A stretch of 63,917 nt of DNA, the filler included, from Welwitschia mirabilis (taxonomy: Eukaryota), in assembly GCA_051453625.1 (NCBI GenBank). It is 10 parts of one record of this genome, joined end to end, with 100 filler letters (N's around TTAATTAATTAA, not from the genome) between each part and the next. Parts side by side here need not be neighbours in the genome. Positions count along the whole stretch, not along the records: positions 11,911 to 20,611 come from JBOZIK010000001.1; 9 more parts are not named here. The stretch is one strand, 5' to 3'. Under the pieces are notes generated by a model that saw only the letters and a program-made list of their open reading frames with translations, did no database searches and was not told the origin of the DNA. Below, in pieces: positions 6,170 through 63,720 of this stretch. A program made the position numbers and the translations under genes. Every line of letters starts with the position of its first letter. The first letter of the stretch is position 1.

Positions 6170-8290
6170 TGATGTTTGAATTTAGATTCTATTGCTTCCT
6201 ATCATGTTTGTCCACACAAAGAAATATTCATATCCTATGAGATGGTCTCCAATGGTGTTGTTTCTTTAGGAGATAATTACACATGTAAGTTCAAAGGGAT
6301 TGGATCCATAATGTTGAAATGGTTAAATGAATAGAGCTTGAATCTGCACAATATTAGGTATATCCCCATAATGGGGAACAATTGCATATCCATCGTCAGT
6401 TGGATGAAGGTGGTTGTATATTCACATTTAGAAACAGCAATTGGAAGATTGCCAAGGGAGCAATGGTGTTGTTTCATGCCAAGATGTAGGGATCCATGTA
6501 CATGTTGAAAGCTAAAACTATGTCTCAAAATGTTGTAATGGCACAGGAAAATAGTTTAGTTTTATGGCATCATAAGCTAGGACATCTAAGAAAAACTGAT
6601 CTAAAAGCTCTTTAGTCAAAGAAGCTACTACCTATGGGAACCTCCATCGCTCTTGGTTTTTGTTCTAACTATGCAGTAGGTAAAAGTAAAAAGCATGAAC
6701 TTTAGAAGAAAGTTTCAATGTAGAAAGCCACTATTTTACATTTGATTCATCTAGATTTAGTGGGACTCATATATCTTGTTTCTACATGCAATGCTTCAAT
6801 TTCACTACTTTTGTTGATAATAAAAGTAGGAAAATATGGTTAAATCCCTTTAAATCAAAAAACATGTCCTTTTAACACATTTAAATATTTCTATAGTTGA
6901 AACTGAAATAGACAAGAAAATAAAACATTTGCTAATTAACAATGGTGGTGAATTTTGCTTATTGGAGTTTGAGAAATTTCGCAAGGAAGCAAGGATTCTC
7001 TATGAGAAACAAGTTCTTGTGCACCCCAACAAAATCTAGTTGCAAAAAGACATAATAGAAACATCATGGAAAGGGTCAAAACTTCAATGGCTAAAATCAG
7101 AGTTCCCAAGAAGCTATGGATAGAGGCAACAACAACAATTGCATACTTGCTAAACAAGTCAATGCATACAACTCTCAAAAGGTGAAATTCTGGAAATGCT
7201 ATGGAGTGGGAGTTCCATCTTCCTAATCCGTATCGTTATGTTTGAATGTAAGGCTTATAGTCATGTGGCTACTACATCTAAGTTTGATGCCCATGCATGC
7301 AAGTGTGCTTTCATTGACTATAATGATGATGAGAGGGTGTAGACTATTCGATCCCAGGAATTAGAAACTGTTCAAGTCACATGACGTGGGGTTCAAGGAA
7401 GATGTGATGTTGTCCACTCACACAAGAAGGTATAGGATAAGGAAGGTCATGTCTAACACCCAGCAAGCACATTTTTGAAGTCTTAGATCAAGAAGAAAAA
7501 GAGTAAAGAGTCTTGGATGATGGCAGCTCTAAATCAAATTTAGCAGTAATGGCAATGATGCGAATATGCATGCAAACTTGCAAGATCCTAAAGTTCATGA
7601 GAAGCATTTTGACAAACCTAAAACACTAATAGTTTGGGTTAGGAGGCCTATAAGGATATCTGGAGCTCCAATCAAGTATTCTCCTTCTTTGAATAACATG
7701 TTGTATACTAATTGTAGTAAACCTGAAATCTATGAACATACAATCCGTAGCCAAGATTCCGAACAACTGCTTGAGCCATGCAAGCATAGGTGAACTCTTT
7801 CTTTTAGAATAAAACATAGGAACTTGTAATTCTTCCCAAAGACAAATGTGCTCTTGCTAATTGATAGTTGTACAGGTTCAAAGAAGAGGCTAATGATGAG
7901 AAGTGATAGAAGGCCATGTCAAAAGCTAAAGGCTTTAAGCAAAAGCTTGCTATTGACTTTACTGAAATTTTTTGACTTATAGTAAAACATGCTTCATCAT
8001 CTTCTCTTTAGTTGTGTGTCTTAATGTGGAATTTGAACAATTGGACATTAAAATAACTTCTCCACATAATGACTTAATGAAGAAAATCTATATCAAACAA
8101 CCTGATCCTAGATCTATGTATAGATTGAGAAAAGGCTTATATGGCTTGAAACAACATCCTAAACAATGGTATAAAAATTTGGATTCTTTTATGCACAAGC
8201 AACAACTTTGCAACTGTGAAGTTGATAATCGTGTGTATTTACATGGCTCAGTGATAGATAAAATCGTCATTCTATAAGTCAATGTTGTGT
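6170..8290 (+). mobile_element. Ty1/copia (Tnt1/Tork-like) pol pseudogene: protease, integrase, partial RT
   Basis: Motifs occur in copia order: LDSIASYHVCPH (protease), LGDNYTCKFKGIG, LWHHKLGHL, LIHLDLVG (integrase), then EQLDIK and YRLRKGLYGLKQHPKQWY (RT, ORF 7972-8277). There are many stops and frameshifts. Confidence 0.9.
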
Positions 8291-9097: not shown

Positions 9098-10093
9098 TGT
9101 TAGGATCAAAGAAGCACCCTAGAGGGAGGGGGGGTGAATAAGGTAATTTCTCTTTATTGCAAACTAAGAGTATAAATTCGAAATTGAATCTTCACAAATA
9201 TTTTATTAAACAAAATCAATCAAGGAATTTAACTAAAANNNNNNNNNNNNNNNNNNNNNNNNNNNNNNNNNNNNNNNNNNNNTTAATTAATTAANNNNNN
9301 NNNNNNNNNNNNNNNNNNNNNNNNNNNNNNNNNNNNNNTATAGGCCCTCCTCAATTGCCTCAGCTTATGTTATTCTTTACAAGATCCCTAAGCAGAAAAA
9401 ACTGACCTATCATGTCAATAAACTTACAATGTAGTAGTATGGTCTCGGCTCTTGATCTACTACTTCTCTAAAGTCTTTAAACTGAATATCAAACTCTAAA
9501 TGCGTTTTTTGATTTTTGAAACTTGCATTATATTTTGTCCTTTTTTTACCACTGAGTCTTTATATTTATTTCATACATAATGTTCATGTTATTCTCTACT
9601 CCAGGTGTCAATGTTTAGTTTGAATTTCAAAACAAAAAAACCTTGTGACATGATTTATGAATTTAACTTATACTCTAGAAAACTTAAATGACCGATAGCA
9701 ACAAATCAATTTAACGTACAAAGCTCTGATTTTAAATAAGTCCATGAGTTTAAAGGGTTAACTCAAAACTCAATCAACTACAAACTCATTATTGAAATTT
9801 TCAATTAGCATACTGGAATATAACACTGTTAAAGTGACATTGACCTGTAGAAATCCATTTATAAGTCCTACTTCCCTACGGAAGATCCTTGCATCCACAA
9901 AAATACATATTGTGATTAAGAAAACTTGTGAGGAGAAACCTTTAAATTACACATCCAAGCCATTTTTGACTTGTCAAATTTTGTTTATTATATCAAATAA
10001 ATAAACATGTAATTACAGTAATAAATTCTAGAATAATTCCCAAGAAGCAAATAAGCAAAAAATAGTACTGTGGGATTGAACAACTTGCATTCA
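9098..10093 (-). mobile_element. Sirevirus (SIRE) LTR, interrupted by a scaffold gap
   Basis: Starts tgttaggatc...ccctagagggagggggggtgaata, the reverse of the C-rich Sirevirus LTR-end motif TATTCACCCCC..CTCTAG. Ends gggattgaacaacttgcattCA. The two halves may come from different copies. Confidence 0.65.
9283..9294. other. Artificial scaffold linker TTAATTAATTAA inside a 100-nt gap (also at 11855, 20656, 24836, 28485, 49936, 52097, 55118 and 62613)
   Basis: An identical 12-mer with stops in all six frames, always flanked by 44 N on each side. Confidence 0.95.
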
Positions 10094-10429
10094 TGAACTA
10101 TACATGCCTAGCAATTTTCAGTGCGATGAGACAATGTGCATGGTTAAGAACATTTCCCCAAAATATAAATGTCTCTATGTGCCGTTGTCAAAGCACCAAC
10201 AATAACAAGAAAACTAGAAGAAACCAACCAACATGGCATATCTGTTGCTTATCATGTGATTCTTATGAAGGGCTAAGAACAGTGTCACCAAAATGAATAT
10301 GCATGAAAGCTTATTTAAAAAAAACTTTAAGCTGCTAAAATTTGAAAGCATAATCTCATGTGGCACAAAATTGGGCATATGGTACAAACGCAAATAAACA
10401 ATGTATATGTTTAAGAAAACAAGGCTTGC

Positions 10430-10518
10430 CTTCTGTTAAACTTATAAGGTGATAAAACTCCTGTTGGATCTCGAGCAGCCCACCCTAAGCAATTCACACC
10501 ATCTTCAGTGGTATCCAT
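10430..10518 (-). CDS. CAD: First coding exon of a cinnamyl alcohol dehydrogenase (CAD1-like, zinc-binding medium-chain dehydrogenase)
   Basis: ATG at 10518 encodes MDTTEDGVNCLGWAARDPTGVLSPYKFNR plus AG, the classic CAD N-terminus (GWAARDPxGxLSPY). The exon ends in phase 2 at AG|GCAAG, a GC donor at 10429-10428. An upstream acceptor CAG at 10547-10545 implies a 26-nt UTR part and an intron in the 5' UTR. Confidence 0.9.
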
Positions 10519-11691
10519 GACCAATATGTTCCTTTCAAGAGCAACTGTTGACATCAAATTACCCTTTAAGAGTTCCGACTAAATTTGTAATCCAGTTAAT
10601 GCAGCTACTTGAGAATTGTATTGAGATGTTACAGAGATTCTCCAGATTTGAAGTACTTAAAAGTTAATTTCCTTCAATATTCTGAACTCTGCTGTTACAT
10701 TTGTTTTTATGAGATTGTAAGCCATAGAAAGCTAAAGAGGAAAAAGAAATATCTCGATTTCACAGCAAAATAAAATGACCACATACTTTTTAAATAGCCA
10801 ATCTCCCAGAAGAAATAATGACCTGACAACCTTGAATGACATGAAATAGAAATTAGTAAGATAACAAAGACATTTTAACTGATATAAAAAATGCTGTTAC
10901 TTTTGATATCTCCTGGTAAATTGGAATTTGCATGTACATGATTCCATGCCGAATATTTCTGCCTAACAGAACATGTGAATTACGAAAAAGACTGACATTT
11001 GAAAGCACTGCTTTTAGGAACCTACTGTATTGAAATCCCTAACATTCAGGATCTCCAAGCAAGGAACAATTTAAGAAACAGAAGTAATTTAGAGAAACAA
11101 TGATGACAAGCAAATATAGAGCTAGGCATTTAATCATATTTCCATATGTTTTGTTGCTTTGGCTTCTGGATGAATAACAGAATGGTACATGCAGCAGGTT
11201 GTGAGTTCAAATTATAAACAAGCAGGTAGATAGGTAAAGTTACAGGCATGGGCAAATTACAATCCTATCCAGTGATATCTGGTTGAATAGGTACAAGTCT
11301 GATACTGTGGTGTTTTGTTGCCATTTCTCATGGCATACCTTCTAGACTAGAGAATGAATTATAACATGAAAATAACAGTTCATCTTTGCTACCAAATCAG
11401 ACCGAGTAGAAACAGATTTGGAAGATGCTACAACAAGCAACGTTTTAAAACACACAAATTTATAGTCAAACACAAAATATTAATGACTAGCAAGTTCTAA
11501 ATAGAATAATTGACGAGGAGGTGATCTAAGTCACTGAACCCCTTTGAGAACGAGCTAATTTCTTTTACCAAACAATATGAGAGTCATGACCAATGTGTTG
11601 CCAACGCAAATACATCATAGTTGATCTTTGTAATTTTACATGCTAAATTAATGTCAAATATGTTCTTTATGAAGTAAAATAAAAGTAGAAC

Positions 11692-11810
11692 TGTTGACTA
11701 TTCTGATTGTGTTCAATTGTAGTATGTAATTGGTACTAGCCCCATAATTTGCTATTTTATGTTATTTCCTTAAATCCCACATTGATTAGGCATTTTGTTG
11801 TAGAGGACCT
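11692..11810 (+). mobile_element. Short LTR, copy 1 (truncated by a gap)
   Basis: tgttgactatt...gtagaggacct matches 14890-15008 with 4 mismatches in 119 bp. Preceded by AGAAC. Confidence 0.8.
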
Positions 11811-11910
11811 NNNNNNNNNNNNNNNNNNNNNNNNNNNNNNNNNNNNNNNNNNNNTTAATTAATTAANNNNNNNNNNNNNNNNNNNNNNNNNNNNNNNNNN
11901 NNNNNNNNNN

Positions 11911-13103: not shown

Positions 13104-14620
13104 CTAGGAAAGAAGGATGGGCAAGCCCCCATGCATACTGGCAATGAGGTTGTGCATTGCTGAAGGCATAAATGAGGCCTTCATTGCCCAAATCTTGGAA
13201 TGCAAAGGGACATATGCTACCACATACTTCATTTGAATGAAGGCCTTCTCCTTCCCTAAACACACCTGCATGTTTGTTTGGAAAACTGGATATCTCAATG
13301 AGCTCTTCCCCTTCAACAATGACAACAAACCCTCTTTTGCCATGACCCATCACTCGAACTTTTATCCCAGGCAGTTGTCTTCCTAGATGAATGCCATGTG
13401 ACCCATCACATATGTTGCGGTACATTACTCTGTCACATGCACATACTCTTGTGCCATTAGGAAGCACGTTGTCTACAGTTGCATGTCTAGAGTTGATGGC
13501 CACTAGTGGGTACAACGACATTGCCTCCTATAGTGCCACATGCGTATAGTTTATGCTTTTCAGGCCATCATATGACAATGTGGAGGTCTCCTTTGCATTC
13601 ATGTAATTGACTATGTGCTTAATCTTGACGTGCAGGTGTCTGGGGTTGAGCCAAATGAACCATGTCAACGACAATGACATGTTATCTCTACCAATCGAGA
13701 GGAAGCTGTCCATTTTGTCTTTCATAGAGGTGCATTGATGCTCATTTGTGCCATTGGATTCCATGAAGAGGCTTAAAAGCTCCATAGGGCCTTGGCTTCA
13801 TTGCTTGTACATATGAACATCTTCAATATGACATCATTGACAAAGGAGTGAATGGTTTCACTTGGCTCTGTGAGGTGTCTCTCGGAGCCCATGTTCAAGA
13901 GGTGCTTTACCTTCCGCAACCACAGTGGGGGGAGTGGCATCTCGAAGTGGCAAGAGCTTCGTGGTGGTGTTGAGGGCATCCTTAACAACGAAAAGCGACA
14001 GTGATGCATGACATGTCTTCATATCGACGCTGAAGGAAAGCGTGCAAATGGAATCAAAGAGAACCTCTTCAACACTTCTCATAATCAATGTTTGAATTGT
14101 GGTGGAGGACTTGGATGAGGTAATTATTGTTGTCCTTGATGGGCTTAAATGATCAAGTTGTAAAGAGAATGGGTATTGAATAGGAAGCTGTTGAGCTTTT
14201 TTTGCATGAGTGAGGATACTCTGCTTGTTCCGCATCACCTCCATCCACAACTCGTTCTTGTTTTGATGCCTACACAAAACTCCACTTTGACAATTCCGTT
14301 GCTCTAATTTGCATGTAACACAATGGCCTCACATATGTAGATTAGTCATCTTTTTCCCTTCCACACTTTGATTGAGGACTTGGATGAGTTGATGAGCATA
14401 GTCCTTGAAAACCTCAATGATGAACCTGCAAAATATGAAATTGGCAAGCTTTGTTTGCATAAACCGTGATACTTTGCTTGTTCTGCCTCACTTGCTTCCA
14501 CAACTTCACCCTCTCTCTTTCATATACACGAAGCTCCACTTGCACAATTCCCTTGCTTTGCCTCACCTTTAACATGGTGACCTTGCACTATATGTAGGTT
14601 GGTCCTTTACCCTTCTACAC
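13104..14620 (-). pseudogene. Cytochrome P450 CYP94-type (CYP94B-like, CYP86 clan) pseudogene
   Basis: Fragments across several frames: MQKKLNSFLFNTHSL, EVLKRF/FDSICTLSF, KVKHLLNMGSERHL, SFLSIGRDNMSLSLTWFIWL (I-helix), *EAMSLYPLVAINSRHATVDNVLPNGTRV..DRV (ExxR lost), and heme region YPVFQTNMQVCLGKEKAFIQMKYVVA (canonical FQAGPRVCLG). Multiple stops and frameshifts, and the 5' part is duplicated. Confidence 0.85.
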
Positions 14621-14889
14621 GTCCCCTCTTATATCTTCTTTCAACCATTCTTGGACAATATTGCTTGGCTCCAATGATTAAAAAGGAGGTTACTAGTGAC
14701 TATATGGGTGGCCAGTAGCCCTAAGCTAATGAAGCCGACTTGTTTCGAGTCTTCCTAACTTTTTCTTCCAAGTAATAGGCGACTAGTAGCCAACCTTTAT
14801 TTTGCCAAAATTTGCCGACTTTTTACTGACTTTCTGCTAAAAATCTCTTTAAAAAATCTTCAAAATTTCAAATTGTTCTTTTTCGTATT

Positions 14890-15083
14890 TGTTGACTATT
14901 CCGATTGTGTTCAATTGTAGTATGTAATTGCTACTAGCCCCATAATTTGCTATTTTATGTCATTTTCTTAAATCCCACATTGATTAGGCATTTTGTTGTA
15001 GAGGACCTATGTCCTATAAATAAGTGGGTATTGTAAATAGTTTGATATATTGAATAAAAGGGGTTTCTCCCAATATTTCTTCA
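14890..15083 (+). mobile_element. Short LTR, copy 2 (194 bp)
   Basis: TG...CA termini, internal cctataaata and aataaaa. Followed by AGAAT. No PPT upstream. Confidence 0.8.
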
Positions 15084-15763
15084 AGAATTAATGCACAGGC
15101 AGCAAGCAGAATATAGCAAACAATTCTACTTGTCGATTGTCATTTAATTAAATAGAAAGGTGTCTCTTAATATCATGATATAGAGATACATGGATGACAA
15201 GTTATGCTCATGGAAGGCACAGATGAGGAACGTGAGATTTTCTTTTCTCACATCAACTACCAACATGAATGCATAAAATCCACAATGGAAAAAGAAAATA
15301 ACAATAGGATTGCCTTCCTGGACCTCTGGATACAGCGTACAAATGTCCCACAAGGCAAAACTATATACTTCAGGGAAGTCCACAGGAAGAGCACAAACAC
15401 AGACTGATACATTGATGGCAACTTTAATCACCACCACACTCGGAAAATGGAAATAATCCACACCCTAATAACCAAAGCATGCAGATACTGTGTGAATCTC
15501 AGCCTCTAGAATAAGGCAGAAGACATCACTGAGATTCTCATATAGAATGGATACTGCACATTTGAAATTCTAAAAAAATGGAAGAGGAAAGGTTATATAC
15601 AAGGCTGCTAACAAAGACTTCCCTTCTAAAAATATAAATGAATGTGATAACCCCAGCTTTGGGAGGCAAAGAAGTGTGCAACTTGTAGTTCTTCCTTTTG
15701 TTGAAAACACCAGCATCAGGCTTGGCAATATTTTACACTCCCACAGGATTGGGGTCTCATACA

Positions 15764-16076
15764 TGTTGGGTATGTGCTCTACATGCCCAGCCCAACAAGT
15801 GGTTAAATATAAAGGGTCCCAGTTTCCACCTAAGTCATGGCTTTTAGTGTGATGGTAATGGGCCCAACAATTGGTATCAAAGCCATGGTTGTTGGCTGGT
15901 GTCGGGTTTGAGTCTCCCTGATGGCTTCCCGATTCATGTGAGCACTTGGCATGTTGATCGAGGGGGAGATTGTTGGGTATGCGCTCCACATGCCCAGCCT
16001 AACAAGTGGTTAAATATAAAGGGTTCCAGTTTCCACCTAAGTCATGGCTTTTGGTGTGATGGTAATGGGCCCAACA
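15764..16076 (+). mobile_element. Complete TRIM (terminal-repeat retrotransposon in miniature), 313 bp
   Basis: 106-bp LTRs at 15764-15869 and 15971-16076 (TG...CA, differing by 5 transitions). iMet-type PBS TGGTATCAAAGCC at 15872-15884. PPT GAGGGGGAGA at 15960-15969. Perfect 5-bp TSD ATACA at 15759-15763 and 16077-16081. Confidence 0.95.
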
Positions 16077-16085
16077 ATACAAACA

Positions 16086-16762
16086 TATTTTTTTTTGAAT
16101 TAGTATTAGAATCATGATCCAAACGATTCTACATTGTTATTCCAGCAAGGACACTTTGGATGGATCTTAAATCCTGGTTCCATATGAATTGCAACCCAAA
16201 GCAATCTGCTCTGCCTTGCACCCCTGAGTGATCTAAAACTCTCTAGATCACCTGTCTATTTTAAGTGCAATTTTTATTTTAAAACATAACACAACTCCAT
16301 TCTGTCACACTGCTGATTATAGGAATCCATATCACTATTGAAATAGTAAGGAAACAGAACAGAAGTAATCTTCTTTGAAGATTTGATCATTCAAATTAGA
16401 TGAAAAGGGCTTCTTATAAATTGAAATCTTTCTGAAACATGAAGGTTTTCTTTGAAAAACATTAAATTTTAAAATTGTCATTTTTCCCCTACCCAAATGT
16501 TAACACTTAATGGAGGTTTAATATTTTAAGTAATATAATGTTGAATTGCCCATATGCTCTCTTTTGAAATAATCATAAGATTGAAACTATCTTGTCTTTG
16601 CAACTCATTCTCATCGGAATTGCAAGGATCTCAGGAAAAAACTGTAAAACCTGTTTTTTTTTTCTTTGTTAATTTAACTTTGTGATCCAAAGTGATCCAT
16701 GATCTACTCCAAAAGTCCAAAACGAAAAAAACAATCTGCAATTCACTTCTATCCACAAAAGT
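16086..16762 (-). mobile_element. Non-coding insertion with a minus-strand A-rich tail (candidate SINE, LINE 3' end or retrocopy)
   Basis: Begins with a T run (tatttttttttt). Flanked by ATACAAACA (16077-16085) and ATGCAAACA (16763-16771). Removing it rejoins the Penelope-like linker sequence. Confidence 0.55.
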
Positions 16763-17096
16763 ATGCAAACAAATCTTCTCATTGAATCAAAGACCTCTTT
16801 CCGACTCCCAAAGAATAGATTGATACCATGGAATGCAGCGCGGTTTACATGATGAGTTGCTCACATGGGAAATGGTACATAGGTGAAATAGGAAGATTTT
16901 TCAAAACCCAATTTGACAAACATGAAGTGGACGCATGTCATTGTCACACCAATAATCCACTAACCAATGGACAGACTATCGAAATCTTTGTCCATGCTCG
17001 TGAATAGGGATAATGGCTCATCCCTCAACCCTTGGCTTTCTGTGATAGCCAAATTAGAAACTAACTTGTTATATATTACACTCCCCCTTATCAACC

Positions 17097-17145
17097 ATAC
17101 AGCCCTGAAGATGAGACTATTAGATTTTGAAATGATGGCATGTAT
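17097..17145 (+). ncRNA. Degenerate minimal hammerhead ribozyme relic in the Penelope-like 3' region
   Basis: ATACA-GCC / CTGAAGA (17105-17111) / eroded helix II (GAGA...TTTT) / GAAA (17129-17132) / TGAT / GGC-A-TGTAT. Helix I pairs as GCC:GGC and ATACA:TGTAT. It lies just downstream of the EN coding end. Confidence 0.6.
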
Positions 17146-17691
17146 TCCAACTTGAGAGCTGTACTAAGAAGAACTTAATCGTGAGCTCATTGAACACACT
17201 TAAAAGTTAGCTCTAAAAAAAAGTTATATAAATAGTCTTTGTGTTTTACATCAAAGTGAAAAAAAATAGGGTGATGAGCATTTTAGGGAAATATTCAGGG
17301 ATACTTGTGCATAATTAATTCGTCAAATCCATACTCATTATGCACGATTGCTATTATCAATATTCACAGCACATGTGTAGGATGTCAACCAGTGACCTTC
17401 AATTATCTTCTTCAGATTAATAATTTTGTTTTGCCGACTGGACGATAATTTTGTTTTGCCAACTGGACCATAGGTCTCATTGTTTTCTGCTATTTCTCAT
17501 CTTACTTTTGTATTGTTGTTTGGTGAAAATAAACATGTAGAAGTTTGGGTGCTATTTAACCATTTGTGAACTTCCAGGGTTGTACAGTGTTAACAGATCT
17601 TTAAAAATGGATTTTTTTTAATATAACCTTCCCAAGGAATTAAGAAACCTGAAGTCTTAACTCGCACAAACATGCCAAAAACACTAATGTC

Positions 17692-18215
17692 ATGTAAGAA
17701 ATCCTCTTATTCTTCTCTGCAAAGAGAAATACATGCTACAAACTAAAAGTATAAGGTGATTGCCCTGTTAGGAGCAATTCTACAAGTGCTCAAACAGTTT
17801 CACTTTATTCTATGATTTATGTTTAAAAGGTATTTGTGATTCTGCGTATTCTCTTGGAACACCGACATCTCAAACTTGTTGATGCAAAGCTCCAATTTGT
17901 TTTCCATTTACATTCTCTAAACATTGTTATAGGACTTATAATAGATTTCTTTGTAAGCAGGTTCATCGGAAATTGTGCTGCAGTTATCATTCAATTGGGT
18001 ATACGCTGAAGGGTGACCAACACTGGGATGAGAGTTCACAACAAATGTGGTCTTATGATCCATGAGGATGTGGTTATCATAATCTTTTTTCAACATAAAT
18101 CTTTGAATATACTGAAACATCTGAATACTTGAACCTAACAGGACAATCACCTTATACTTTTATTTTATAGTCTGTATTGCCCTTTAGAAAAGAATAAGAA
18201 GAGAATTTCTTACAT
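17692..18215. repeat. Diverged inverted repeat (arms about 170 bp, spacer about 180 bp)
   Basis: atgtaagaaat...aaaagtataaggtgattgccctgttagg...gatttatgttt at 17693-17866 is the reverse complement of about 18050-18215, with scattered mismatches. Confidence 0.8.
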
Positions 18216-18284
18216 AAATATTTTATTGTTGGTGCTGATCCATGTAAAAATGGTGTGTGAAATTGTGTAACAACAGATGCAAAT

Positions 18285-18657
18285 TGTTATTAAAATGAAT
18301 GCAGCATAAAACAAGACGAACCATTAAATTTAAAAAAAAACAAAAACAAAAATGAAAAGTGCACAGGAGATTTAACAAGGTTCAGCCCCTTTCTTGCCTA
18401 TGTCTTCAGGAAAGCAGTGTAAAGCTCTTATTTCAGCCAAAAGCTTCAGAGAACACAAATAGACATGAATCACATCACACCTAACCTTCAACGGCTTAAT
18501 GGGTATATATCAGAGAGGGATTTAAGGTAAAGTAGCAAAACCCTACAATTTATTCAATAACTCCCCCATGGGGATTTTATAATCCAACCTAGCTTTCATG
18601 ACCACGTAACATAACAAACAAGGGAGTGAAAATAGAATTTGACTTCACATCACAACA
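18285..18657 (-). mobile_element. Copia (Tork-like) solo LTR, 373 bp
   Basis: TGTTAT...CAACA termini with flanks CAAAT/TAAAT (a TSD with one transition). The end resembles the LTR ends at 184 and 5451. Confidence 0.65.
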
Positions 18658-20560: not shown

Positions 20561-20711
20561 AACAATCATTGTTTGTTCTATCTCTCTCTCTACCCCTAGG
20601 GGGGGGGCGGGNNNNNNNNNNNNNNNNNNNNNNNNNNNNNNNNNNNNNNNNNNNNTTAATTAATTAANNNNNNNNNNNNNNNNNNNNNNNNNNNNNNNNN
20701 NNNNNNNNNNN

Positions 20712-54758: not shown

Positions 54759-57700
54759 TGTTGTGATGTTAATTTGTGATAATTCAATGGTATATTTTGA
54801 GTACTTTTGCAGGACATTCATTTAGGTTTTGACACAATACTGATGAATATGAGGATGTGATATGATAATTAGTAAAATATGTGATATTTGATACTATTGG
54901 CAGTTTTTCAATCTTATTCTGATACTACAGAATTGGAGGAAGGACTTTACAATATAAAGATTAACTTACCTTGGAGAAAAGAGTAGAAGAAAGAAGTCAT
55001 CCTCTCCATCATCCCCACGACACCTAGGATGACCATACTACTAATATGGATAGAATCCTATGGCACTGATAGTNNNNNNNNNNNNNNNNNNNNNNNNNNN
55101 NNNNNNNNNNNNNNNNNTTAATTAATTAANNNNNNNNNNNNNNNNNNNNNNNNNNNNNNNNNNNNNNNNNNNNCTTCAAATGCGAATGTTACACTTAGAG
55201 ATTTAATTGCTAATAGAAAATGTGAATTTCAAAATCCTTTTGATTACATCTTAAGATGATGTAGAGTTAATAAATCTAAGTGCATACCCAACCTTTTTGG
55301 AGGAACTAGAAGAAGATCCTTTTCAACATCTAGCAGATATAGAGCAACTTGTGCTTACATCTGGAAATGGGAAAAAATGTATTAGTGAACACACATACAT
55401 GATTATTTTTCCCATTACCCTTAGAGGAAAAGCAAAAATTTGGGTAAAAACCATCCCACATAAAAGTATTAAATCATGGAGTCAAGTGCAAGAAGTTTTC
55501 ATTAAACAATTTTTGAGTGAAAGTACTATGATAAAGAGAAGAAAAGAAGTCATCAACTTCCAACAACAACCACATAAAGATTATGCAACTNNNNNNNNNN
55601 NNNNNNNNNNNNNNNNNNNNNNNNNNNNNNNNNNNNNNNNNNNNNNNNNNNNNNNNNNNNNNNNNNNNNNNNNNNNNNNNNNNNNNNNNNAACAACCACA
55701 TAAAGATTATGAAACTATGTATGAATGTTTTATAATTTCTAGTCATCCTAACCCTATTGATGAATTTAATAAGGAAGAACTAGTAAATTATTTTTATAGT
55801 GGACTGAATGCTTTAATTAAATAACTTGTGGATTTTTCTTATGAAGGAAATTTATTGAACTTAAATTTAGATCATGCTTAGAATGTACTAGAAAATTTAG
55901 TGGAAATCAGTTAAACTTAGCCTAAATCCACTAAGGAAAACCATACTAGAGGAGAAATTTTAAAAGAACTAAAAGAGGTAAAACATGACAGGGAAGAAGA
56001 AAGGGAGGATTTAACTAATTTAATGAAAGATTTCATTGATACTTTAGACAAGTATAATTAAATGATAGTTGACACAAAGATTGTTAAGAATGAACCTTCA
56101 ACTTCTAACTATGAACTTTGTGAAGATGATTCCCATTCAACAAAAGAATATCCCTTGCTACCAACTTATAAAGAAATAATGTTAGAGGAAGTATGTGCTT
56201 TCAAATAAAGAACTTCTAACTTTAAGAGCTATCCACCATTTTAATAAAGACTAAGTAGGTAATCCCAATGAAAACAATTTGAGCATAGATTTAAAAATTC
56301 TAATTTCCAACCAAATTCTCAACAAAATTTGAATGATACCCTTAGAGAATCCATTAAAGAAATGAGAAAGGTGTAAGAAAAAACCAATAGCAACATTGAA
56401 AACCTAGTGACTGTGCTCCAACAAACAATTCTTATCAATCAAAGATCACAAGGAGCTCTTACNNNNNNNNNNNNNNNNNNNNNNNNNNNNNNNNNNNNNN
56501 NNNNNNNNNNNNNNNNNNNNNNNNNNNNNNNNNNNNNNNNNNNNNNNNNNNNNNNNNNNNNNNNNNNNNNNNNNNNNNNNNNNNNNNNNNNNNNNNNNNN
56601 NNNNNNNNNNNNNNNNNNNNNNNNNNNNNNNNNNNNNNNNNNNNNNNNNNNNNNNNNNNNNNNNNNNNNNNNNNNNNNNNNNNNNNNNNNNNNNNNNNNN
56701 NNNNNNNNNNNNNNNNNNNNNNNNNNNNNNNNNNNNNNNNNNNNNNNNNNNNNNNNNNNNNNNNNNNNNNNNNNNNNNNNNNNNNNNNNNNNNNNNNNNN
56801 NNNNNNNNNNNNNNNNNNNNNNNNNNNNNNNNNNNNNNNNNNNNNNNNNNNNNNNNNNNNNNNNNNNNNNNNNNNNNNNNNNNNNNNNNNNNNNNNNNNN
56901 NNNNNNNNNNNNNNNNNNNNNNNNNNNNNNNNNNNNNNNNNNNNNNNNNNNNNNNNNNNNNNNNNNNNNNNNNNNNNNNNNNNNNNNNNNNNNNNNNNNN
57001 NNNNNNNNNNNNNNNNNNNNNNNNNNNNNNNNNNNNNNNNNNNNNNNNNNNNNNNNNNNNNNNNNNNNNNNNNNNNNNNNNNNNNNNNNNNNNNNNNNNN
57101 NNNNNNNNNNNNNNNNNNNNNNNNNNNNNNNNNNNNNNNNNNNNNNNNNNNNNNNNNNNNNNNNNNNNNNNNNNNNNNNNNNNNNNNNNNNNNNNNNNNN
57201 NNNNNNNNNNNNNNNNNNNNNNNNNNNNNNNNNNNNNNNNNNNNNNNNNNNNNNNNNNNNNNNNNNNNNNNNNNNNNNNNNNNNNNNNNNNNNNNNNNNN
57301 NNNNNNNNNNNNNNNNNNNNNNNNNNNNNNNNNNNNNNNNNNNNNNNNNNNNNNNNNAAGGACTTAGTGAGAAGAAAGCAAAAACATATCATCCCTAGTA
57401 AAGTTTTTCTTGCCCAATCTCTTTCCAACTTAGTGATGAAAAAATGTCCTAAATTAAAAGATCCTGGAGCTATAACTATTAGTGTTACCTTAGAGGGAAA
57501 CAAAAGAATTAGAAAGGCTTTGATTGACATAGGAGCAAGTGTAAACATTATGCCTCTTTATATATGTAAAAGACTTGGGTTAGAAAGTAGAGTTGAACCA
57601 ATACCTATCATACTAGAGCTATCTGATATCTTAATCAAGAAACCTTTAGGAATTATTAAAGATCTAGTCATCCAAATTAAGAAATCTTTTTATCTTATTG

Positions 57701-60700
57701 ATGTTGTCATAATTGAAATAGAGCATGATGAAGGGTATCCATTACTTTTAGGAAGAGCTTTTTGCNNNNNNNNNNNNNNNNNNNNNNNNNNNNNNNNNNN
57801 NNNNNNNNNNNNNNNNNNNNNNNNNNNNNNNNNNNNNNNNNNNNNNNNNNNNNNNNNNNNNNNNNTTTGAGGAAGTATGTACTTTGAACCAAACAACTCC
57901 TAACTTTAAGAGACAATCACCATTTCAATAAAGACCAAGTGAGCAACCCCAATTGAAACCATTTGAGAATAGATTTAAGAATTTCAACTTCCAATCAAAT
58001 TCTTAACAAAATATGAATGATTCCCTTAGAGATTCCATTGAGGAAATGAAAAAAGGTGCAAGATAAAACCAATAGCAATAGTGGGAACCTGGTAAATGTG
58101 CTTCAATAAACAATGCTTGCTAACTAAATACCATAAGAGTCTCTTACCTTCTAACTAATACCCAACCCAAACAAAGTTAGAAGAGACTTAAAAATTATAA
58201 CAAGAAGTAGGAAAGATACAACACCTCCTACCCATGAGGTTTCAACTTCTAAACAAAATAAAGTAATTGAGGAAGATGATATAGAAATCCTAGATTCTTA
58301 TAACCTTCCTTCTACATCATCTGCTAAAGCCTCCATCAAACATAATTTAATAGAAAATAAGGAAAAGAAATCATCCACTCCTTGGCTTGATAGATTGAAC
58401 ATGAATCCTACATTTGACAAACACCTCAAAGCCTTGATACAAGAAGTCAACATTAATCTTCCCTTTTGGAAACTGTTGCAAGAAAATACTAAATATTCTA
58501 AGTTATGGAAGGACTTAGTGAGAAGAAAGTAAAAACATATCATTCCTAGTAAAGTTTTTCTTGCCCAGTCTCTTTCCAACTTAGTGATGAAAAAATGTCC
58601 TAAATTAAAACATCCTGGAGCTACAACTATTAGTGTTACCTTAGAGGGAAACAAAAGAATTAGAAAGGCTTTGATTGACATAGAAGCAAGTGTAAACATT
58701 ATGTCTCTTCATATATGTAAAAGACTTGGGTTAGAAAGTAGAGTTGAACCAATACCTATTATACTAGAGCTAGCTGATACCTTAATCAAAAAACCTTTAG
58801 GAATTATTAAATATCTAGTCATCCAAATTAACAAATCTTTTTATCTTATTGATGTTGTCATAATTGAAATAGAGCATAATGAAGGGTATCCATTACTTCT
58901 AGGAAGAGCTTTTTGCACTATAGCTCATTGTATCTTTGACACTTGATCCGAAATGATGAGATACCACTTTGACAACAAAGAAATTACCATTAAGGTCTTT
59001 GATGCTGTTGAAAAAGACATAGGAATTAATTTTAATAGTGAAGATGATTTGAGAACAACTTTATTTCTACAACATCGACTCATAGAAGAGAGATTAATTA
59101 TGCTACATAAGCCAACTTTGTATGATGATCCAACTTAAATAGATTATTTTAAATTTGAGAAAGAAGTTTTCAAGGATGAGGAAGAAACCCAACATATTTA
59201 CTCTATAGAAAAACTTTTTAAAGATTGTTGTACCATGACTATCGTCCCCATGATAGATGGGGCGATAGTCCAATTTAACTCTTATGATCTTAAGAAGTTA
59301 TCTAAAGGTCTAAAATACATATTTCTATTTGAAAATCAAATGAAACCTCTAATAATCAGTGATCTTCTTACTCCTCAACAAAAATCAGATTTAACCTTAC
59401 TTTTAGAGTTAAAGAAAAATGCCTTTACTTGGACGCATAAAGATTTAGATGCCATTCCTCTTTCCATAATGCAGCATAAAATCTATTTTGANNNNNNNNN
59501 NNNNNNNNNNNNNNNNNNNNNNNNNNNNNNNNNNNNNNNNNNNNNNNNNNNNNNNNNNNNNNNNNNNNNNNNNNNNNNNNNNNNNNNNNNNCATTGACAC
59601 TTGATTCGAAATGATGAGATACCACTTTGACAATAAAGAAATTACCATTAGGGTCTTTGATGCTACTAAAAAAGACACATGAATTAATTTCAATAGTGAA
59701 GATGATTTGAGACCAACTTTATTTCTACAACATCTACTCATAGAAGAGAGATTAATTATGCTACATAAGCCAACTTTGTATGATGATCCAACTGAAAGAG
59801 ATTATTTTGAATTTGAGAAAGAAGTTTCTGAGGATGAGGAAGAAACTCAACATATTTATTCTATAGAAAAACTTTTTAAAGAGTGTTATCCCATGACTAT
59901 CGTCCCCATGGTAGATGGGGCGATAACCCAACTTAACTCTTATGATCTTAAGAAGTTATCTAAAGGTCTAAAATACATATTTCTATTTGAAAATCAAAAG
60001 AAACCTCTAATAATCAGTGACCTTCTTACTCCTTAACAAAAATCAAATTTAACATTACTTTTAGAGTTAAAGAAAAATGCCTTTACTTGGACACATAAAG
60101 ATTTAGATGCCATTCCTCTTTCCATAGTGCAGCATAAAATCTATTTTGAGGACCATGCCAAACTTATTAGACAACCCCAAAGAAGACTAAATCTAGCCCT
60201 TAAACAAATTATTAAAGATGAAATCATTAAAATCATGGATGCTAGAATTACTTATGACCTCTCCACTCTTTACTAGAAAAAGATGTCAAATTTGAGTGGT
60301 CTGATTCTTGCTATCTGACTTTTGAAACTCTTAAGGATAAAATCTATTTCGAACTTATTATCACGGGTCTTGATTAGAACAAAGACTTTGAACTTATATG
60401 TAATGCAAGAAATAGTGTTGTAGGGAGGTTCTTGATCAAAAATATGAGAATGAATTCAAAATTATACCTTACCTTAGCAAAACTTTGACAAGTGCCCAAT
60501 CCAACTATACTATCACTGAGCGAGAAATACTTGTTATCAGCTTTTTCTTGGACCATTTTTGATACTATCTTCTTGGTTTCTACATCAATGTCTACATAGA
60601 CTATGCAGCCATCTGTTATCTCATGACAAAAAAATATTCAAGTGCTAGACTTATTAGATGAATCATTTTAATGAAATAATTTAGTCTTACCATTATTGAT

Positions 60701-62668: not shown

Positions 62669-63720
62669 ATTCATGAGGAAAGTTCGATAGAGGACTCTAA
62701 TCCTTCTTCAATCACCTACCATAAATTTATATACTCAAAACTATTAACTACTGATCCGCTAGGTCTTCTGAATTGATTTGTGACAGCATTGCTAGATTTA
62801 AACACATGATTTGTAACCCCTGAAGGATGGAATAAGGGATTAGACCTGGTGACATGAGCATAATATTTTCTATTGACTGTTTGCCAATCTTTCTCTACAT
62901 CATTTTCCTCATTAAGAATTTTAGAATATTGAGGAGTCTCTTAATTATCTTTCTGACTAGTAGCATGAAACTTTTCAATAGATTTATGAGCAATATTCCC
63001 TTTATCCAAATTTTTCTTATTACCTTTGTTGACGTTGGGATCATCTAACTCTTGAGTAGTCTAATTATCGTGATTTGCTTCTTGAGAATTTTTAAGATTT
63101 TCCTTCANNNNNNNNNNTTTTTTGCTAAAAGTCTGTCTGCCTTCATCTTGGCTAAGAGTTTAAGGCAACGAGCCCTAACATGATTTGGTTCTTTGCAATA
63201 ATAGCAATGATTAGGAAAAGTTAGATAAGTAACTTTTTGAAGAATAATTGTTCCATTTACTGTTAAACATATAACCTCTGGCAACGGTCTATTCAAATCA
63301 ACAGAAACACAGATTCTTCTTATAGGATGTGCACAAAGCTTTGAAAAGGTCTCCATTTCACTAACATTTCTAATTTTAGTAGCCAAAATATCGACACGAG
63401 AAAGAAAATTGACTAGAAGATTTGGAAATTCAATCCAAACAGGGATAGTACTTTGATCTACTTTTTCTAGATTAAACCCTTTATGCCAAGGCTGTAAAAT
63501 AAGATAAGTTCCTAAAATATTCCAGACTGGTTGTTCCTTTACTCAATCTGCCATTTCTTTAGTTTTAAAGACAAAGAGAAAGAAACNNNNNNNNNNNNNN
63601 NNNNNNNNNNNNNNNNNNNNNNNNNNNNNNNNNNNNNNNNNNNNNNNNNNNNNNNNNNNNNNNNNNNNNNNNNNNNNNNNNNNNNNTAAAGACAAAGAGA
63701 AAGAAACCTTTAGTCATATT
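62669..63720 (-). mobile_element. L1 LINE ORF1 fragment
   Basis: VWNILGTYLILQPW, IPVWIEFPNL, RICVSVDLNRPLP and CYYCKEPNHVRARC (ORF 63105-63386), the DUF4283 plus zinc-knuckle architecture of plant L1 ORF1. Confidence 0.85.

Follow-up and report, generated by a model that had tools for sequence, protein, structure and literature searches.

Did an endonuclease-bearing Penelope-like element (EN+ PLE) once reside in the genome of a flowering plant? This question is raised by a short locus in a 63.9-kb stretch of plant DNA (in the following “the window”, meaning the whole stretch that was analyzed; all positions refer to it), where four colinear coding remnants on the + strand, at 15184-17006, correspond to the 3' half of such an element. 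According to Craig et al. 2021 (PMC8557442), EN+ PLEs are confined to animals except for a single transfer into conifers, and angiosperms lack PLEs; this and all other publications are cited here from excerpts, to which our statements about them are limited. An earlier reading of the locus made without database searches (the sequence-only reading) had named the same hosts, animals and conifers but no angiosperms, in agreement with this source. Our analysis indicates that the locus is very probably a dead, 5'-truncated copy of a canonical EN+ PLE in the nuclear genome of a sub-gigabase plant, which is probably an angiosperm. The copy has no present function.

The relic consists of the following pieces, with a possible fifth one at its end (RT, reverse transcriptase; EN, endonuclease; ORF, open reading frame; HSP, high-scoring segment pair in the tblastn comparison described below):

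15184-15213, + strand: RT motif C (R-YMDD-...-W), read directly in frame 1, with a frameshift right after it
15198-15596, + strand: RT C-terminal domain with FLD, RK.T.TD and NGY, a 133-residue read-through containing 3 in-frame stops
15646-15763, + strand: RT-EN linker (LPF...) with no Cys cluster, in a frame that differs from that of the RT piece, 6 HSPs
16786-17006, + strand: GIY-YIG endonuclease domain (VY-9-YIG, GR and H), 5 HSPs, 1 in-frame stop
16964-17071, + strand: possible end of the ORF, a C-terminal tail (NRD.G..L..W) recognized by eye only, in a separate frame

The motif C block contains the most 5' recognizable PLE residues. By direct reading, YMDD occupies 15187-15198 in frame 1, the motifs FLD, HRKSTNTD and NGY share one frame over 15198-15596, and AVY-(9)-YIG is followed first by GR and then by H within 16786-17006. 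Related proteins positioned the RT C-terminal domain at 15222-15596 by tblastn. The linker motif LPF..S.RL..IL lies at 15691-15762, and only one Cys occurs between LPF and the GIY motif. Reading 16786-17033 yields three in-frame stops, two of them at 17005-17013. Of the CCHH motif of the endonuclease, the decayed domain retains the first Cys, has His at the second position where the 841-aa relative P0006 has Cys, and continues with His residues.

The relationship of these pieces to PLE proteins was assessed with the 133-residue RT read-through as query against a library of 1.84 billion representative proteins. This search returned 1016 proteins at E ≤ 1e-3 and 14 at E ≤ 1e-10, but none at E ≤ 1e-30. 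The top match (E 1.5e-16) showed 42% identity, and identity to the relatives ranged from 35 to 42%. RVT_1 was present in all 22 scanned hits, and the Pfam family GIY-YIG in one of the 22, with 22.3 bits against a cutoff of 22.6. In the reverse check, 150 listed hits (of the 1016) were compared with the whole window by tblastn. All 159 resulting HSPs were on the + strand at ~15.0-17.0 kb, with zero elsewhere in the window; sorted by their starts into 200-bp bins, two fell into the bin at 15000, 146 into that at 15200, six at 15600, four at 16600 and one at 16800.

Colinearity was evaluated with the 18 hits at least 550 aa long. All of them matched the RT piece. Matches to the GIY-YIG piece, which invariably lay C-terminal of the RT match, occurred in 12 proteins with the threshold at E ≤ 1 and in 8 with it at E ≤ 1e-3. 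Four proteins matched the linker piece (E 0.002-0.15), each time after the RT match, and in the two of these that also matched the EN piece the linker match came before it. Motif C gave weak local matches in 12 of the 18 (E 0.02-0.98), located 10-13 residues N-terminal of the RT C-terminal piece. As an example, residues 512-625 of P0006 correspond to 15222-15575 and residues 677-728 to 16786-16941, the latter with an EN match of E 3.5e-9. At the level of sequence comparison, the order of the relic pieces is confirmed to match that of full-length PLE proteins. Direct reading, the 159 HSPs and the colinear long hits thus uphold the proposal of the sequence-only reading that the locus is the relic of an EN+ PLE in which GIY-YIG follows RT at the C-terminus. 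The tail, which it had regarded as the end of the ORF, is legible by eye but found no colinear match in the 18 long proteins. The protein-library search and tblastn gave PLE-type RTs, and Pfam found nothing in the relic pieces.

To which kind of PLE do these pieces belong? In the canonical EN+ architecture, RT is followed by a C-terminal GIY-YIG domain, and a CX2-5CxxC finger in the linker is a feature of Neptune and Nematis that is missing from Penelope/Poseidon (PMC8557442). The relic contains a PLE-type RT including its C-terminal domain, from motif C onward only, with GIY-YIG downstream on the same strand and colinear. Judging from the order of the pieces, RT and GIY-YIG were presumably encoded by one original ORF, which is now broken. 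With only one Cys in its linker, the relic lacks the CX2-5CxxC zinc finger, as do Penelope/Poseidon elements; the affinity to this group that had been suggested by eye is consistent with the count. The RT C-terminal domain, the GIY-YIG core and the linker without CX2-5CxxC are shared with the Penelope/Poseidon PLEs of insects and squamates. Chlamys and the EN-less PLEs of green algae, Selaginella and mosses (Craig et al. 2021) are, like the relic, PLEs of the green lineage, but they have an N-terminal EN or none, whereas in the relic EN lies 3' of RT on the same strand.

The top hit of the RT read-through, P0003, is a beetle protein (Callosobruchus chinensis), and PF00078 and PF26215 are found in the majority of the 120 relatives listed for it. 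Among these 120, 42 rows were named by organism, namely 35 insects, six squamates and one Escherichia coli, with no plants. A language-model look-up of P0006 led to arthropod and flatworm clusters with HTH_animal, RVT_1 and DUF8422, some of which also contained GIY-YIG. P0161, a PLE-type RT protein filed under Escherichia coli, is 60% identical to the beetle protein P0003 and probably represents animal DNA contamination in a bacterial assembly.

How firmly is the relic anchored in its host? Two insertions interrupt it, and a repeat of very high copy number adjoins it:

15764-16076, + strand: terminal-repeat retrotransposon in miniature (TRIM), 313 bp, with 106-bp long terminal repeats (LTRs) at 15764-15869 and 15971-16076, a primer-binding site from 15872 and a polypurine tract at 15960-15969
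16086-16762, - strand: second insert, 677 bp, with a T-run at its left end and junctions spanned by contigs
14890-15075, no strand assigned: very abundant host repeat immediately 5' of the relic, read depth 2e4-1.7e5, with loose read ends at 14890

The TRIM LTRs are 95% alike (a repeat search gives 108 nt since two flank bases match too), and the element is bordered by a 5-bp target-site duplication (TSD), ATACA, at 15759-15763 and 16077-16081. The TRIM family reached a depth of ~1e4 in host reads, compared with 3-6 in the flanks, and many loose ends occurred at 16076. Its members in the host reads continue past the LTR with TGGTATCAGAGCC..., which we take for the primer site that plant Copia-type elements typically have. 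At commonly used plant substitution rates, the ~5% difference between the TRIM LTRs corresponds to a few million years, and the relic is older still. The 677-bp insert is flanked by ATACAAACA at 16077-16085 and ATGCAAACA at 16763-16771, a direct repeat with 8 of 9 positions matching. It probably represents a retroposon inserted in - orientation, with an A-tail and a duplication of 9 bp, its type (a SINE, short interspersed element, or a truncated LINE, long interspersed element) being suggested by these features. The left copy of this duplication later received the TRIM. The high-copy repeat at 14890-15075, in which a TATA-like box occurs, has a second copy at 11692-11810 with 97% similarity that extends into an N gap; a solo LTR, a SINE and a miniature inverted-repeat transposable element are all conceivable.

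The 5.5-kb stretch around the relic was present in 13 sequencing runs from four studies under two organism labels, with at least half of the sampled words in six of these runs. Depth and contigs were examined in four runs, one from each of the four studies. Depth was ~1-7 (mostly 3-5) in the flank at 14000-14600, ~0-8 over the relic, and ~6 downstream of it, the last being seen only in the two deeper runs; over the TRIM and the repeat at 14890-15075 it was 1e4-1e5. Runs X9 and X10 left parts of the stretch uncovered. The following contigs, exact or nearly so, were obtained:

15079-15592: run X10, records 10 and 11
15059-15792: run X3, record 19, with 29 differences
16054-16543: run X1, record 7
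16514-18500: run X1, record 8
16514-18451: run X3, record 24

Both junctions of the 677-bp insert were bridged by contigs (X1 records 7 and 8; X3 records 23 and 24), and the GIY-YIG part was joined by contigs to 1.4 kb of single-copy downstream sequence.

These data bear directly on the possibility that the relic is an artefact, i.e., animal contamination or a chimeric scaffold. In its favor, the nearest labelled relatives are insects and the assembly is a gap-rich draft. Yet relic and flanks have equal depth in all four runs, each from a different study, exact contigs lead from the relic into the ~1e4-depth host repeat, contigs cross the second insertion into the 1.4 kb downstream, and nested insertions with duplications signify long residence. 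The equal single-copy depth across studies and the nested host repeats make contamination very unlikely, and we give an artefact almost no probability. The sequence-only reading had likewise argued against contamination from a TRIM inserted with a TSD, and had set apart an insert at 16086-16762. The TRIM stands with its similar LTRs and ATACA on both sides, the insert with its flanking repeats and its junctions in contigs, and the argument itself is strengthened by the flank-equal depth in four runs and by the ~1e4-depth host repeat nested with a TSD.

The contigs of run X3 at 15059-15792 and 16050-18451 differ by ~2-4% from the window, including deletions of 15 and 25 bases, and a second run under the same organism label is identical to the window; the relic is present in both forms. 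Two haplotypes, homeologues or mixed taxa under one label may account for this divergence.

Several results weigh against reading the locus as an EN+ PLE copy that inserted here by retrotransposition. A local copy of Pfam found no RVT_1, GIY-YIG or other family in any relic piece, and a word-index protein search with the relic gave 16 candidates, none of which scored. RT core motifs 1-4 and the N-terminal domain were not found by tblastn against the whole window, in which no HSP lay upstream of ~15.0 kb, so that the copy is a 5'-truncated fragment and not a full one. There were no hits to hammerhead or other Rfam families at gathering score; at E ≤ 10 over 13500-18500, Rfam gave six hits, all with E ≥ 2.1 and all to snoRNA or miRNA models, with no hammerhead among them. 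Neither a pLTR (pseudo-LTR) nor a partial-tandem structure was observed for the relic, its own TSD was not found (no 8-mer is common to 15040-15230 and 17000-17600), and the window and the read contigs of the region contained no second copy at ≥90% identity. Neither TRIM junction was flanked on each side by 31 or more letters of a single contig; the contigs break off after 23-30 letters of LTR, the usual behavior of k=31 contigs at high-copy repeats. Given the missing RT core, N-terminal domain, hammerhead, pLTR and own TSD, retrotransposition into this site is a conclusion drawn from the remaining pieces and not a demonstrated event. The high-copy repeat directly upstream, at 14890-15075, limits what can be said about the 5' end of the relic.

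An EN+ PLE copy of this shape could have arisen as follows. The EN nickase would cut the target DNA, and RT would prime on the freed 3'-OH and copy the element RNA from its 3' end, i.e., by target-primed reverse transcription. Unfinished copying would leave a 3' fragment comprising RT motif C, the RT C-terminal domain, the linker and EN. 5' truncation is often left by target-primed reverse transcription in PLEs. After insertion, the copy decayed, and it now has at least six in-frame stops and a change of frame between each pair of pieces; next, the retroposon with its 9-bp duplication entered the relic, and the TRIM came last, into the left one of the two duplicated stretches. The lineage itself may have reached plants by horizontal transfer from an animal.

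Which plant is the host? The RT of a Copia element at 7966-8274 had three nearest clusters with Streptophyta as the commonest phylum (scores 0.95-0.96). An ORF at 63118-63542 (- strand) contains DUF4283, which we take to be a plant domain, has a zinc-knuckle-like end, and is broken off at an N gap. A Gypsy gag-protease read gave eight matches, seven from Tanacetum and one from Salvia, at 25-33% identity. An ORF at 10414-10578 (- strand) matched N-termini of the plant cinnamyl alcohol dehydrogenase (CAD) family in solved structures, namely nerol dehydrogenase (4.3e-5), cinnamyl alcohol dehydrogenase (7.3e-4) and sinapyl alcohol dehydrogenase (1.6e-3); the CAD family accounted for 13 of the 16 matches listed, and the other three were unrelated, at E ≥ 0.71. 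The CAD exon that the sequence-only reading had proposed for identifying the host therefore exists. No further CAD exons were found downstream of it, where a Copia remnant (~6.1-8.3 kb) and N gaps lie, and this first exon possibly belongs to a disrupted gene. A Pfam scan of 353 ORFs of at least 42 aa found Copia and Gypsy domains only, apart from the DUF4283 ORF.

The host is a plant. It is not a conifer, and it is likely an angiosperm. Of the angiosperm host deduced from nearby elements in the sequence-only reading, the plant is supported by the Copia RT, the DUF4283 domain and the CAD exon, while the angiosperm as such is likely on indirect evidence. With a conifer or another gymnosperm as host, the relic would be an ordinary Dryad, the Dryads being the EN+ PLEs of conifers. 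The gap-rich and repeat-rich assembly (6780 N in 41 runs) would suit such a host, as would runs of 170-213 Gb and a capture library under one organism label. On the other hand, a 5.2-Gb run contained 90% of the sampled words with a depth of ~6 at the locus, and runs of 1.1-1.7 Gb had a depth of ~3. These depths, a crude measure since they were taken from contigs, imply a genome of roughly 0.3-0.9 Gb. Gymnosperm genomes are far larger than this, those of conifers by tens of times. We therefore regard a gymnosperm host as highly improbable.

Where, then, did the lineage come from? Two trees were calculated, which contained no labelled Dryad, Neptune, Nematis or Hydra rows. The first (FastTree, 129 columns) comprised the relic and those 232 of 256 BLAST hits in which at least 95 query residues were aligned. 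The relic was joined first by P0027 (support 94), next by P0008 (79), and belonged to no well-supported larger group. In the second tree (IQ-TREE quick, 63 rows, consisting of all labelled rows, the nearest rows and long rows), the relic again grouped with P0027 (94, below star level). It was placed outside a group of 55 rows (support 92) that contained all labelled insect and squamate rows, and its end branch was flagged as long (1.64). P0027, an unlabelled protein of 124 residues, is degenerate at FLD and also resembles the relic in a frame-shifted stretch past the RT domain. The pairing of the relic with P0027 is a lead only, because two decayed sequences may attract each other.

One origin consistent with these data is a horizontal transfer of its own, from an arthropod or another animal and separate from the conifer Dryad event. 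It is suggested by the named relatives (the 35 insects, six squamates and one Escherichia coli) and by the atlas neighbors of a full-length hit, which are Arthropoda and Platyhelminthes. Transfer of an RTE element from arthropods to angiosperms has also been published (PMC5850137). These elements, An-RTE and AdLINE3, are a possible precedent for animal-to-angiosperm retroelement transfer, although they belong to another retroelement order and carry an AP endonuclease in place of the GIY-YIG of the relic. In the same paper, Gao et al. 2017 refer to the conifer case as the sole earlier transfer of a transposon from animals to plants. Against a separate transfer stand the low identity of only 35-42% to anything found, the position of the relic outside the labelled insect and squamate group, the bias of the labelled set, all members of which are relatives of one beetle protein, and the fact that no donor clade was identified. 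The relic also differs from the insect and squamate PLEs in being a pseudogene in a plant host. In our estimation a separate transfer is possible, at clearly less than an even chance.

Alternatively, the relic could be what vertical inheritance has left of an old PLE lineage of seed plants, Dryad itself or its sister, after near-complete loss in angiosperms. The Dryads belong to the Penelope/Poseidon group (Lin, Faridi & Casola 2016, as given in the citing papers PMC8557442, PMC9033089 and PMC5850137). Like the relic, they are EN+ PLEs of seed plants with RT before a C-terminal GIY-YIG, a linker without a zinc finger, and arthropod elements as nearest labelled relatives; unlike the relic, which is a single decayed fragment, they form a family in conifer hosts. 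This likeness is one of description. In favor of an old lineage are the domain order and the Cys-poor linker of the Penelope/Poseidon group (PMC8557442), the heavy decay and single-copy state of the relic, and the degenerate fragment P0027 as its nearest row in both trees (support 94). The latter may be an artefact of two long branches, that of the relic being flagged, and the reported absence of PLEs from angiosperms (PMC8557442) speaks against this scenario. We consider vertical descent rather unlikely.

Irrespective of its route, did an EN+ PLE lineage exist in a flowering-plant genome, with the relic, perhaps together with P0027, as its first curated trace? We put this at just short of an even chance. 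In a 2022 review, the only PLEs given for land plants are the conifer Dryads and elements without EN (PMC9033089), and our literature search, with subscription journals outside its coverage, found no curated PLE from an angiosperm. Automatic annotations do report “Penelope” signals: a flax repeat table contains 548 “Penelope” matches covering 30 kb (PMC3544724), read clustering in Asteraceae found “Penelope” in 12 of 14 (PMC4546089), and values in Myrtaceae are near zero (PMC12752123). The flax and Asteraceae figures are match and read-cluster counts, and no order of RT and GIY-YIG is presented in the cited excerpts. If the angiosperm relic is true, at least part of this automatic signal would be real. 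The relic would then represent a second transfer of PLEs from animals to plants, or a PLE lineage of seed plants predating the conifer Dryad event, and its locus could serve to date and follow a second passage of a retroelement between kingdoms.

Some further observations concern the window as a whole. A tRNA scan found none. The DUF4283 ORF at 63118-63542 resembles ORFs that are often attached to plant retroelement-derived genes. The 6780 N of the window are distributed over 41 runs (e.g., 9239-9338, 11811-11910 and 20612-20711). Twelve gaps consist of 44 N, 12 bases and another 44 N, a pattern that looks like an assembly or gap-filling artefact, and there are also plain runs of 100 N and longer gaps. 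A Gypsy protease stretch occurs in two close copies, at 57358-57765 and 58512-58943, ~1.1 kb apart and with N gaps between the two, and reflects either a tandem copy of the transposable element or an assembly duplication.

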